Of a DNA stretch of 64,000 nt, positions 26,141 through 29,462 are shown one piece after another. A model generated the notes under the pieces. That model was not told where the DNA came from and did no database searches. It was given only the letters and a program-made list of their open reading frames with translations. Origin of the DNA: an uncultured Bacilli bacterium (GTDB lineage Bacteria; Bacillota_I; Bacilli_A; RF39; UBA660); contig CANRDB010000001.1 in assembly GCA_947629315.1 (NCBI GenBank), positions 4,829 to 68,828 of the forward strand, read 5' to 3'. Positions within the stretch are counted from its first letter, which is position 1. Every line of letters begins with the position of its first letter. Both the position numbers and the translations under genes were made by a program.

Positions 26141-26168
26141 TCCTACTGCACTCACTTAAAAGTGGCAC
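26125..26168. other. attL of IE-3
   Basis: gttggccctacgGGTcctactgcactcacttAAAGTGGCACT. The arm is the perfect inverted partner of AGTGCCACTTT at 29419. Confidence 0.6.
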
Positions 26169-26256
26169 TTTTGCCAAAAATTAGAACGAAAATAAGCACT
26201 TTACATTTCATTTGAAATATTATATAATACAAGTAACTAGAAAGAAGGGATTATAA

Positions 26257-27651
26257 ATGAAAAAAGTAGTAGGAACAGTAATGAAAGGGATGCTTGTTAC
26301 TTCAGGAGTTGTCACTGCTGTTGGTTGTACATTAGCTATCAGTAATCATTTGTTGAAATCAGATGATCTTGTTCTATCCAATCACAATGGTAGCGAAGTA
26401 AAACAAGCAAATGTTTTAGCGGTCGCTCAAAATCAAGTAAAGGAAGCGGAAGTTCAAGAGGCAAAAGCCAACCAAGAATTGACAAAAGCAACAAATGAAA
26501 AAGCAGAGGCAGAAAAAGAAGTTCAAAAAGCGAAAGAAACTGTGAAAGAGGTTCAAAAGGAAAAAAGCAAAGCCGAAGCACAATTAAAAGAAGCCAAAAC
26601 AGAAGAAGAAAGAAAACAGGTAGAAGATCAAATTAAAGTTTTAGAAGAAAAAGTGAAAGAAGCTGAAAATAATCAAAAAGCAGCAGAATCAAAAGTACAA
26701 GAAGCAGAGACTAAGGTTCAAGAGGCTGAAGTGAAAGTTCAAGAGGCTGAAGCCAAGGTTCAAGAAGCTGAGGCTAAAGTTCAAGAAGTACAAGAGACAG
26801 AAATGAAGAAACAAGAAGTAGAAAAACAAGTTCAAGAAGTTCTTCCAGCAAATCCTTCAAAAGAAGAAACTCAAACTACTGTCAAAGAAGAAAACACTAC
26901 CAAACCAGTTGAAAATAATCAACAAGTAACGACTCAAGAAACAAAGCAACCAGAGACAAAACAAACTGAAACGAAACAACCAGAGACAAAGCAAGTTGAA
27001 ACAAAACAGACTGAAACGAAAAAAGAAGAATCTTCAACAAACAATAATTCTTCTAATAATAGTTCTTCTAGATTAACGCAAGAGGCTTTAGAGGCTGCAG
27101 CGAGAGCAGAACAAAAATGGAATGAGGAATATCAAAAATTCCTTGCTGATCAAAAAGCAGAAGCAGATGCTAAAAAGCAAGCAAGAGATGAGGAAGCTAA
27201 AAAAGCAGAAGAGGCTGCTGAAAAAGAATTGGAAGAAAGAAGACAAAGAGAATCAACAGACAGTTTAAAGAACTTTGGTTCAGCGACTACTGATACCGTA
27301 TTTGGAGATAGAACTTTTACATTTGCTCAAAAGAATGTAGATTTACCATTTAATCCAGATATCAAAGAAAATCCAAAGAAAGTGACTTGTACAGGAGACC
27401 ATTGCGGAAAGAATGAACAAGGTTACATTTGGTTTGCTAGATTTAATAACAATTTAAATCTTGATATCTTTAAAGAACCTGGTAGTGATCGTTATGTAAG
27501 TAGTGTTCTTATTGGAAAACGTGGCGATGTAGAATATTGGACGCAATATGCACCAAGTGTTGTAAACGGTCATCAATTTGTAGAGTGGAAAGTAACAGAT
27601 ACTACTGAATATGGTATGAAAATTAAAGTTTATACTGCCATTTATAAGTAA
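26257..27651 (+). CDS. Secreted/anchored repeat protein (IE-3 cargo)
   Basis: N-terminal signal/anchor (VVGTVMKGMLVTSGVVTAVGC), KVQEAE-type coiled-coil repeats, ETKQ(P/T/V) repeats, and a C-terminal globular domain containing Cys residues. Confidence 0.7.
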   Translation: MKKVVGTVMKGMLVTSGVVTAVGCTLAISNHLLKSDDLVLSNHNGSEVKQANVLAVAQNQVKEAEVQEAKANQELTKATNEKAEAEKEVQKAKETVKEVQKEKSKAEAQLKEAKTEEERKQVEDQIKVLEEKVKEAENNQKAAESKVQEAETKVQEAEVKVQEAEAKVQEAEAKVQEVQETEMKKQEVEKQVQEVLPANPSKEETQTTVKEENTTKPVENNQQVTTQETKQPETKQTETKQPETKQVETKQTETKKEESSTNNNSSNNSSSRLTQEALEAAARAEQKWNEEYQKFLADQKAEADAKKQARDEEAKKAEEAAEKELEERRQRESTDSLKNFGSATTDTVFGDRTFTFAQKNVDLPFNPDIKENPKKVTCTGDHCGKNEQGYIWFARFNNNLNLDIFKEPGSDRYVSSVLIGKRGDVEYWTQYAPSVVNGHQFVEWKVTDTTEYGMKIKVYTAIYK

Positions 27652-27653
27652 TG

Positions 27654-27684
27654 AAAGAGCGAAACAATTCGCTCTTTTCTTTTG
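27654..27684 (+). terminator. Terminator after the repeat protein
   Basis: AAAGAGCG-aaacaatt-CGCTCTTT followed by TCTTTT. Confidence 0.5.
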
Positions 27685-27734
27685 ACCTATGATTAAAACT
27701 ATCCTTTTAGAATAATATACATTGAGGAGGTTTG

Positions 27735-27824
27735 ATGATGAAAGTAATCAGTCATTTTAAAGATAATGGTGAAAATTTAACAAAAGTTATAGAAGAATTG
27801 TTAAAAAATATCATTCAAAAATAA
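27735..27824 (+). CDS. Possible 29-aa ORF immediately upstream of Rec3
   Basis: A GAGGAGG SD followed by MMKVISHFKDNGENLTKVIEELLKNIIQK. Its stop is 6 nt before the Rec3 ATG. Confidence 0.25.
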   Translation: MMKVISHFKDNGENLTKVIEELLKNIIQK

Positions 27825-27830
27825 AGGCAA

Positions 27831-29420
27831 ATGTATGATAACTTTTTCAGATTTATAAAAGAAATCCATTATATTATTTATACTAGACTTTCTAAGGAAG
27901 AACAAGGAAAAAGTCGAGAAGATCAAAGTAGAAGTATAAAAAACCAAATAACAGTATGTCAAAATTATATGGAGGAAGAAAAAAGGACTTATCCAAATTG
28001 TATCTTTAAAGAAGTTGCTATTTTAAAAGATGATGGGGTTTCAGGAACAACTTTTAATCGAGAAGATTTTCATAAACTAGTAACGTTAATTGAACAAAAA
28101 CAAGCCAATATGGTCATCACAAAAGATTTATCAAGGCTTGGAAGAGATCATATTCAAACAGACGATTACCTTGAGAAATGGTTCCCAGAACATAATGTCC
28201 GATATGTCTCTGTAATGGAAAATATTGACACTTATGTGGATTCTATAAGCAATGAAATTGCCCCTATTATCAATTGGAGTAATGAAAATTTTGCGAGACA
28301 AACTTCTAAAAAAATTAAAAAAACTTTTAAAGAATATCGGAAAGATGGGAAATGGACAGGTGGAGAAATCCCTTTAGGTTATCGAAAGGATCCGCATGAT
28401 AAATATCATTTTATGATTGATGAACAAGGAAAAGAAATCGTAGAAAGAATATTTCATTTGGCCTTAAATCATAATAGCCTCGATAAAATAGTAAAAATAC
28501 TAACAGAAGAAAATGTCCCCCTACCCTCTGCTATTAAGAAAAACAAAAGAAAATTAAATATTAACATGTGGTCTACAAAAACCGTCAAAAGTATTTTACA
28601 AAATGAAATGTATTTAGGTCATATGGTTCAAGGAAAAACAACACGTTTAAACCATAAATCAAAAAAAATCATTTATTTAGAAAAAGCCAACTGGGATATC
28701 GTTAAAAACACACATGAAGCAATCATTGATCAGGAAACTTTTCAAAATGTTCAACTATTATTAAAAGCCAATAAAAATAAAACCATTCACTCTTATGATT
28801 ATCTATTAAAAGGTTTAATAAAGTGTAAAGAATGTAAGCATAGTATTAGCATTCAAAGCTATCCCAAACGAAAAGCCTGTTATACCGTTTGCAATTATTA
28901 CCGAAAATATGGAAGTAAAAAAGAGGTATGCACTGCTCATAGATTTAATTATTTAGAATTAGAAAAATTAGTTTTAACACAAATAAAAGAAGATTGTTTT
29001 AAATATCTTGATAAAGATAAATTAATGGAAATACTTACTAATTATCAAGAACATCTTCCAATCATTTATGATATAAAAAGGAATATAGAGAAAAGTAAAC
29101 AAGAAATAAGAAAATTAGATAATCAAATAAAGGAAATCTATAATGATAAATTAGAAGGAATTATAACGAAAGAACAATACCAAAATATCACCAAAAGTAA
29201 ATATGAAACATTAGAATATGAAAAAAAGAAAATATCCCGTTATCAGAATCAATTAAAAGAAACAGAAAAAAATAATCAAAAACAAAATGAAAAAAAAATA
29301 ATTCAAGAAGTTTTATCCCTAAATAATAAATTACTCATTTTAAATTTAATTGATGTCATTTATTTAGGTCAAAATGGACATATCCATATTTATTATAAAA
29401 TTCAAAAGCCATATCAATAG
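27831..29420 (+). CDS. Large serine recombinase Rec3 (a different clade from Rec1/Rec2)
   Basis: [11 protein letters not shown] (catalytic Ser), [11 protein letters not shown], a recombinase domain, zinc ribbon CKECKH...CNYYRKYG...C, a coiled coil and the tail HIHIYYKI. Confidence 0.9.
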
Positions 29421-29462
29421 TGCCACTTTGAATGGTTTGCAACTGGTTCTACTGGAGATATC
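29419..29462. other. attR of IE-3
   Basis: AGTGCCACTTTgaatggtttgcaactgGTtctactggagatatc. The arm overlaps the Rec3 TAG stop. Confidence 0.6.

Follow-up and report, generated by a model that had tools for sequence, protein, structure and literature searches.

How can one gene hold three integrative elements, and at which bases was the third of them inserted? The question is raised by a 64,000-nt stretch of contig CANRDB010000001.1 from an uncultured Bacilli bacterium (assembly GCA_947629315.1), referred to here in its whole length as the window. On its plus strand, positions 18448-29834 hold a single collagen-like gene of the BclA type that has been split into four pieces by three insertions, IE-1, IE-2 and IE-3, each of which brings a gene for a large serine recombinase (LSR) of its own. 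The initial annotation of this DNA had singled out IE-3 as a third, separate LSR element with arms of its own in the same repeat-coding gene and with junctions that join in frame, a description that our analysis upholds. It had also assigned IE-3 a crossover shifted from that of its neighbors, and here we arrive at a different picture: IE-3 is probably a minimal LSR-mobilized integrative element with its crossover at an AC dinucleotide, and its precise excision would restore the gene.

As previously annotated, the element carries perfect 11-nt inverted arms, AAAGTGGCACT at 26159-26169 and its reverse complement AGTGCCACTTT at 29419-29429. These are the only perfect pair in the 64 kb; with at most one mismatch allowed, six copies were found against 0.65 expected from shuffles. 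The crossover was located with a symmetry scan, in which all identical-dinucleotide pairs near both ends were considered and the attachment site (attP) rebuilt from each was scored over 26 positions on each side, with 200,000 random position pairs as the null (7.1 ± 2.3 complementary). The AC pair at 26145/29442 reached 20/26 complementary positions, a score attained by 0 of the 200,000 random pairs. A repeat finder returned as the longest inverted repeat of the region 26147-26173 and 29415-29441 (27 nt, 78%), flush with both AC dinucleotides. The full attP3 thus centered reads AGTGCCACTTTG-aatggtttgca-AC-tgcactcactt-AAAAGTGGCACT, about 50 bp made of a 12-nt arm, 11 nt, AC, 11 nt and a 12-nt arm. 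About the same AC, attB3 is symmetric at 9/26 positions compared with 20/26 for attP3, and the two sites therefore differ. The left arm is itself nearly palindromic at 26158-26172 (AAAAGTG G CACTTTT), which means that each element end may hold overlapping half-sites. A 5-bp shift of the ZD motif between attP and attB was also looked for by eye; one attB half-site was suggestive, the rest were not, and the idea was dropped.

The initial annotation had Rec3, the recombinase of IE-3, cutting at the GT common to both junctions (26140/29446), in an attP with a 34-nt spacer, or alternatively within a shared CTACTG. Both strings do occur at both junctions, the flanks are in-frame collagen-type coding sequence, and both joins are in frame, the GT join being GGCCCTACGGGT^TCTACTGG (here and below a caret marks the join). 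Symmetry, however, argues against them. Under the comparison with chance that the annotation itself had named, the GT center scores 9/26 and the AC within CTACTG (26145/29451) 8/26, no better than the null. The left junction had been transcribed with one A missing (the actual sequence is cacttAAAAGTGGCACT), and the arms of the attP rebuilt in this way stand 35 nt apart; GT is consequently off its center. None of the relatives described below has a shared dinucleotide at that offset, and all of them have AC or GT 11 nt from the arms. We therefore find a cut at GT or in CTACTG barely credible. The string GCAACTGG, listed in the annotation as an additional feature of the left half of attP3, is indeed present at 29439; it is the crossover site itself.

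The neighboring elements scan to the same dinucleotide, IE-1 with 20/26 and IE-2 with 18/26 complementary positions about the AC crossovers given in Table 1. In all three elements the AC lies in GCA AC TGG or CCT AC TGG, that is, (G)CAACTG or CCTACTG, and only the outer arms differ among them. Since the AC of IE-3 sits in gcaACtgg, the core and dinucleotide of IE-1 and IE-2, the crossover has not been shifted; by its sequence context it is the same kind of AC as in the other two elements. This placement has one competitor, as a second symmetric center, GC at 26148/29439, scores 18/26 because the inner site reads TGCA-AC-TGCA. The GC center was ruled out by comparison only: at that offset L001, one of the relatives, has GT at one end and AC at the other, the flanks of L090 and L091 still have AGT in common beyond it, and in IE-3 it would add two residues and break the Gly periodicity.

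Relatives of IE-3 share this geometry. Rec3 has numerous homologues, and we compared the DNA around a dozen members of the Rec3 clade, 47-78% identical to Rec3, from metagenome-assembled genomes (MAGs) and metagenome contigs. At every locus examined (L001, L083, L003, L004, L005, L086, L087, L090, L091/92, L093-96 and L103), a 12-nt arm of the form (A/T)GTGCCACTT(T/C)N is followed by exactly 11 nt, AC or GT, and collagen-type coding DNA. At L003, GT is the only sequence common to attL and attR. The same LSR protein (P0029) is found at L090 and L091/92, with flanks identical up to GT and diverging right after it; one recombinase beside two different collagen flanks therefore marks the element boundary and indicates that the clade is mobile. 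Six rebuilt attB sites gave uninterrupted (G-X-Y)n repeats, each cut within a Thr codon. Judging from every member inspected, insertion at the Thr codon of a G-X-T repeat is characteristic of the whole Rec3 clade.

More than one element per gene is not confined to the window. L083 holds a second Rec3-clade element in tandem (from ~7818 onward, attL ggacctAC tgcttagggtt TAAAGTGACACA), and at L032 (4969-9722) a Rec1-like LSR and an LSR of a third lineage, the latter centered on GT, are separated by 54 nt of collagen DNA. The clade spans minimal elements of 3 kb to large ones, and the large members (L086, L087 and L090) carry RecA, a DnaB-type helicase, SSB and a small resolvase. These large elements are neither obviously phage nor obviously conjugative. 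That of L090 also has a SpoVS homologue beside its integrase end.

Joined at the three AC sites, the four fragments of the collagen-like gene form an open reading frame (ORF) of 807 nt that encodes 268 aa and keeps its Gly periodicity without a break. The product aligns collinearly with P0123, an intact homologue, starting at residue 2 and reaching the final residue. IE-3 interrupts this ORF within the stretch of G-X-T repeats, where the crossover AC belongs to a Thr codon (GGT CCT AC^T GGT). The protein begins with a Cys-containing N-terminus and a short collagen run, followed by a globular module (ITIGTTTTGAPGT...NFVIPAG). A long collagen region of the form G-P-T-G-D-(I/V) and a second, similar module come next; in Pfam and NCBIfam the collagen repeat alone was recognized. 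These observations bear on whether IE-3 might be an immobile relic lodged in a pseudogene. Such a reading would fit the integrated state, the only one seen in two samples, as well as the fast-evolving cargo of the element and the absence of a promoter motif, CATAnnnTA, upstream of the window copy. However, Rec3 is full length and keeps all conserved residues, the small ORF preceding it is intact, the arms are preserved (11/11 perfect, 20/26 overall), and none of the four target fragments contains a stop or a frameshift. A relic is accordingly improbable.

Table 1. Coordinates of IE-3, its attachment sites, the interrupted gene and neighboring features in the window (a caret marks the crossover or join).
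Feature	Position	Strand	Description
Target fragment 1	18448-18701	+	Cys-containing N-terminal region, short collagen run, globular domain 1, ...PAGAT
IE-1	18702-23147	+	AC crossover 18700/23146; Rec1 at 21123-23120
Target fragment 2	23148-23264	+	collagen repeats, between IE-1 and IE-2
IE-2	23265-26101	-	AC crossover 23263/26100; Rec2 at 23282-24796, minus strand; 49-aa ORF upstream
Target fragment 3	26102-26146	+	45 nt, between IE-2 and IE-3
IE-3, as redefined	26147-29443	+	3,297 bp; AC (2 bp) shared, so 26145-29441 is equivalent; symmetry scan, inverted repeat, relatives
attL3 central dinucleotide AC	26145-26146	+	first two bases of the Thr codon in ...GGT CCT AC^T; symmetry scan, relatives
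P' half-site of attP3	26147-26169	+	11-nt spacer tgcactcactt, then 12-nt arm AAAAGTGGCACT (26158-26169)
Cargo gene promoter, sigma-70-like	26200-26228	+	TTTACA-17-TATAAT, 11/12 matches; consensus match only
Cargo gene	26257-27651	+	464 aa: N-terminal hydrophobic anchor, long coiled coil, Thr/Gln/Lys-rich linker, small C-terminal domain
Hairpin, terminator-like	27654-27677		10-bp stem, directly 3' of cargo gene; scored on minus strand, T run on plus side too
Small ORF	27735-27824	+	29 aa, MMKVISHFKDNGENLTKVIEELLKNIIQK; ends 6 nt before Rec3
Rec3	27831-29420	+	529-aa LSR
P half-site of attP3	29419-29441	+	12-nt arm AGTGCCACTTTG (29419-29430), then 11-nt spacer aatggtttgca
attR3 central dinucleotide AC	29442-29443	+	within GCAACTGG (29439-29446)
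attP3 junction (predicted circle)			GAATGGTTTGCAAC^TGCACTCACTTAAAAGTGGCAC
attB3 junction (predicted rebuilt target)			GGCCCTACGGGTCCTAC^TGGTTCTACTGGAGATATC
Target fragment 4	29444-29834	+	collagen repeats, globular domain 2, stop
SpoIIIAH-like	12616-13113	+	
GerE-type regulator	13195-13401	+	68 aa
GerM-like	13449-14405	+	two Germane domains
GT2 glycosyltransferase	29840-30925	+	with TPR repeats; adjoins target gene

The fate of this gene family elsewhere was surveyed with the 120 best homologues of the N-terminal part (18448-18701; P0122-P0241). Most are intact: they measure 130-172 aa, have both modules and finish with the C-terminal ending seen in the window protein. Of the 120, about 15 end a few residues past a Thr codon in the collagen region, and insertion of such elements in the family is therefore common. 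The tails of three of these short homologues read KKWH or EKWH, the translation of the AAAGTGGCAC arm, and at least three tail types follow the Thr codon overall (ARLF/ARF..., KKWH/EKWH and HTLxSESK), which suggests that several element families hit the same type of codon. In L097-L101 the orthologous gene is also truncated, by a different element. The orthologue in L098 (10270-10330) breaks off at ggacctAC^tgctcgattgttt with no LSR within 10 kb downstream, and its insertion may be a larger element or belong to a different family. G-X-Y runs at 31688-31858 (plus frames) of the window were considered as a further collagen gene fragment and rejected; they arise because the opposite strand encodes a Pro/Val/Ala-rich repeat, part of a membrane protein of 312 aa (30961-31899, minus strand).

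Rec3 displays the architecture of an LSR, with Resolvase (PF00239, 3.9e-17), Recombinase (PF07508, 7e-22) and Zn_ribbon_recom (PF13408, 7e-10) domains, and matches the integrase family phrog_95 (E 5e-88). Residues R19, S21, R102 and R105 show no variation across an alignment of 37 relatives, with Ser and Arg in the motifs YTRLSKEE and DLSRLGRD. LSRs have a coiled-coil motif within the zinc-ribbon domain that controls directionality, and in Rec3 residues ~395-490 are rich in heptad-like K/E/Q/L sequence. The only structure in the PDB matched by sequence is the catalytic domain of TnpX (2mhc, E 1.4e-15), from Tn4451 of Clostridium perfringens, and the comparison covers this domain only. Tn4451 is a small LSR-mobilized element that moves via a circular intermediate. 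TnpX and TndX, the recombinases of Tn4451 and Tn5397, use GA as the central dinucleotide at element ends and targets and are not known to need a separate recombination directionality factor (RDF) for excision; unlike this GA rule, the center of the Rec3 clade is AC in all members, which reads GT on the other strand.

Rec3 has ~30% identity to both Rec1 and Rec2; the N-terminal halves of those two are 54% identical to each other. A neighbor-joining tree built from 92 LSRs recovers a monophyletic Rec3 clade made up of the collagen-associated loci; Rec1, Rec2 and the Rec1-like protein of L032 form another clade, and many LSRs without collagen-like flanks branch between the two. The divergence reported in the initial annotation is thereby confirmed. 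Its further statement that two unrelated lineages had converged on this gene is correct in that the clades are distinct, but the three recombinases show homology along their entire length (E 2e-48 to 4e-27), with a common domain order and nucleophile motif, (Y)xRLSKE(D/E). By these comparisons Rec3 is a separate lineage, yet homologous to Rec1 and Rec2, and on this distance tree the targeting of the gene may reflect convergence as well as shared ancestry.

The cargo protein of IE-3 had no family above threshold in Pfam, PHROG or NCBIfam, and its C-terminal half as query gave no homologue at E <= 1e-3. The cargo proteins of the minimal relatives L001, L083 and L103 are homologous to it at 33-41% identity, compared with 76-78% for the recombinases of the minimal elements, so the cargo diverges much faster than the enzyme that would move it. 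IE-1 carries a minus-strand gene (18743-20977) for an Acyl_transf_3 and SGNH O-acetyltransferase, with the PHROG match 'O-antigen acetylase', and IE-2 a minus-strand gene (24984-26012) for a 342-aa membrane protein with a zinc ribbon at each end. Compared side by side, all three elements thus encode envelope-related or membrane proteins. No phage structural, packaging or lysis genes were found in IE-3, in which the integrase is the sole PHROG match. A phage origin was rejected, as INPHARED and IMG/VR contained no relative above 33% identity.

The only gene besides the recombinase that is kept across the clade is the small ORF. It follows the pattern MKVIxHFxxxGxxIQKVIEELL, comprises 26-41 aa and lies directly upstream of the LSR gene in 10 of 10 Rec3-clade loci inspected (the window, L001, L003, L004, L005, L083, L086, L087, L090 and L093). 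A 49-aa ORF upstream of Rec2 (24768-24917, minus strand) begins similarly. From this conservation and position, a role as a directionality or accessory factor is possible. A sporulation promoter for the operon formed by the small ORF and Rec3 was sought; xATAnnnTA-like strings occur in this AT-rich DNA and are perfect in 1 of 10 loci, and we make no claim for one.

What kind of gene, then, has been interrupted three times? The window is chromosomal, as it encodes RecA, RNase Y, FtsK, enolase, MreC/D, PolI, SerS, Ddl and MurF. A spoIIIAH-gerE-gerM trio lies ~4 kb upstream of the collagen-like gene and precedes the orthologous gene in L097-L101 as well; the presence of SpoIIIAH, GerE-type and GerM homologues indicates a spore-forming host. 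Genes for YlbJ and a sigma factor of the SigG/SigF type are similarly present in a host that carries a close relative of Rec3, and in L001 and L093 the homologous target has BclA_C as its C-terminal domain. The pairing of the collagen-like gene with a GT2-TPR glycosyltransferase gene recurs in L086, L093-L096 and L102. In five of six target orthologues (L098, L001, L102, L093 and L005) the motif CATAnnnTA occurs at -26 to -31 from the start, a conservation with P about 1e-10 if the sequences are independent, in upstream DNA that is otherwise unalignable. We take this motif to match the -10 consensus of the sigmaK/sigmaE-type, mother-cell promoters of B. subtilis. On the best reading of this context, the target is probably a spore-surface glycoprotein expressed in the mother cell. 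Upstream of the gene, a SecA/SecA2-like protein is encoded as two consecutive plus-strand ORFs (14652-15368, 238 aa; 15400-18366, 988 aa), which score well below curated cut-offs and contain long insertions; the pair may be a split or very divergent accessory SecA beside the collagen-like gene.

The same context bears on the proposal that IE-3 acts as a reversible on/off switch, by phase variation, of a vegetative surface adhesin. The collagen-like proteins Scl and Lcl are adhesins, against whose models the repeat region scores, and comK and mutL are known cases of gene integrity under reversible regulation (PMC7192596). These adhesin matches, however, lie far below the cut-off and come from the repeats alone. 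No signal peptide, LPXTG or other wall anchor was evident by eye in the 268-aa protein, and both the BclA_C domain of homologous targets and the sporulation-related neighborhood argue against a vegetative adhesin. We regard a switch of this kind as very improbable.

Mother-cell genes of spore-formers are the setting in which LSR elements within coding regions are known to excise, and this leads to a developmental reading of the locus: all three elements would be excised in the terminal mother cell, rebuilding the gene in the manner of skin, SPbeta and gin. We advance this tentatively and put its chances somewhat short of even. For the recombination itself, the established LSR mechanism predicts that a Rec3 dimer would bind each att site and cut with a 2-nt stagger at AC, followed by subunit rotation and religation. 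Recombination of attL with attR would free a circle of 3.3 kb, and the gene would again read ...GPTGPT^GSTGDI... without a frame break. As in other serine integrases, excision would need a directionality factor, for which the small upstream ORF is the candidate. The germ line would pass on all three elements silently, and the mother cell would lose them and thereby regain the gene.

The principal alternative is that IE-3 is an ordinary selfish element for which the repeats offer many near-identical landing sites in a dispensable gene, that any excision serves the transfer of the element alone, and that the host gene stays knocked out. The RecA, DnaB, SSB and small-resolvase genes of the larger clade members are typical of mobile elements, and the survey of the 120 best homologues, with most intact and a minority truncated after the Thr codon, is what a tolerated insertion would produce; the imperfect promoter motif of the window target and the failure to find an excision product would also fit. 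On the other hand, the four gene fragments are still open and in register after three insertions, and the target resembles a mother-cell gene in a spore-former, the one setting in which function is known to survive an insertion in the coding region (PMC5595907). A gene that can still be rebuilt would also make it easier to retain three elements within it. A purely selfish element is a serious possibility, if on the unlikely side.

Several observations nevertheless count against excision and its developmental timing. No excision product, empty attB or circular attP was found in the data searched, and a second sample (L088, reached via the GT2-TPR neighbor) contains the same integrated form. The 3.6-kb contig L103 was considered as a circle and rejected, since it has collagen DNA at both ends and is hence an assembly break in the repeats. 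An arm-N26-arm scan for the attP of the clade gave five unrelated palindromes in JGI metagenomes, one of them in a high-GC contig without an LSR, and no matches in IMG/VR. The small ORF had no match to any family searched, and at 29 aa it is, to our knowledge, far smaller than known RDFs. Across the 10 loci, the DNA upstream of the small ORF-Rec3 operon has no conserved promoter of the mother-cell type. The window copy of the target is itself without a perfect CATAnnnTA (18380-18447 reads CACGTACCTTA), which may represent promoter decay or a variant. Finally, the host identity of the relatives is based on MAG labels such as 'uncultured Bacilli bacterium'.

Precedents for the excision of IE-3 exist among LSR elements that reside in coding regions and excise to rebuild the gene, namely skin, SPbeta, vfbin and gin (PMC5595907). 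One of these is gin, located in gerE of Bacillus cereus ATCC 10987 and served by the recombinase GirC and the directionality factor GirX (PMC5595907). Like IE-3, gin is a non-phage element with a serine recombinase within a coding region, and its att sites are imperfect inverted repeats about a central dinucleotide (PMC5595907). Its target is a late mother-cell gene whose ORF is rebuilt by excision (PMC5595907), whereas the restoration by IE-3 is in silico only. The two also differ in scale and targeting: gin measures 28.6 kb and has three recombinase genes and one unique target, while IE-3 has 3.3 kb, a repeated G-X-T coding motif as its site, a gene shared with two other elements, and an RDF in the form of a candidate only. 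In skin (sigK, SpoIVCA) and SPbeta (spsM, SprA/SprB) of Bacillus subtilis and skinCd of Clostridioides difficile, an LSR likewise reconstitutes precisely a gene that the mother cell needs for sporulation or the spore envelope, and an RDF sets the direction (PMC5595907; PMC5499854, PMC5025042). They are prophages or prophage remnants of tens of kb, one per gene, in contrast to IE-3 without phage genes. Tandem integrative elements at one attB, for example in tRNA or icd genes, resemble the present locus in having several integrase-bearing elements (PMC7192596). Those arrays reuse one regenerated core, whereas IE-1, IE-2 and IE-3 occupy three repeat units, 117 and 45 nt apart, each with its own arms. 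We found no paper in the open-access literature searched linking serine recombinase elements with collagen-like or BclA-type genes. IE-3 would thus vary the theme of the gene-intervening element by targeting repeats, with several elements per gene.

If the elements do excise, the few genes known to be restored through programmed excision of DNA would be joined by a spore-surface collagen-like gene that holds up to three elements in its repeats at the same time. The Rec3 clade represents recombinases aimed at a coding repeat and not at a unique site, and, owing to such insertions, about one in eight of the closest target homologues in metagenomes appears as a truncated ORF. Its members offer natural attP/attB pairs with a fixed arm-11-AC-11-arm geometry and varied inner sequence, useful for studies of how LSRs read their sites, and their conserved micro-ORF lends itself to testing as a candidate directionality factor of minimal size. 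A broader proposal, which we consider doubtful as a whole, is that several LSR clades (Rec3, Rec1/Rec2 and L013/L032) have specialized on spore-surface G-X-T repeats as a landing pad, at the AC of the Thr codon, with removal of multiple elements in the mother cell and a peptide of ~29 aa as the smallest known RDF. Were this landing-pad reading true, uncultured spore-formers of the gut would reconstitute a gene during development by removing multiple elements targeted to its repeats.

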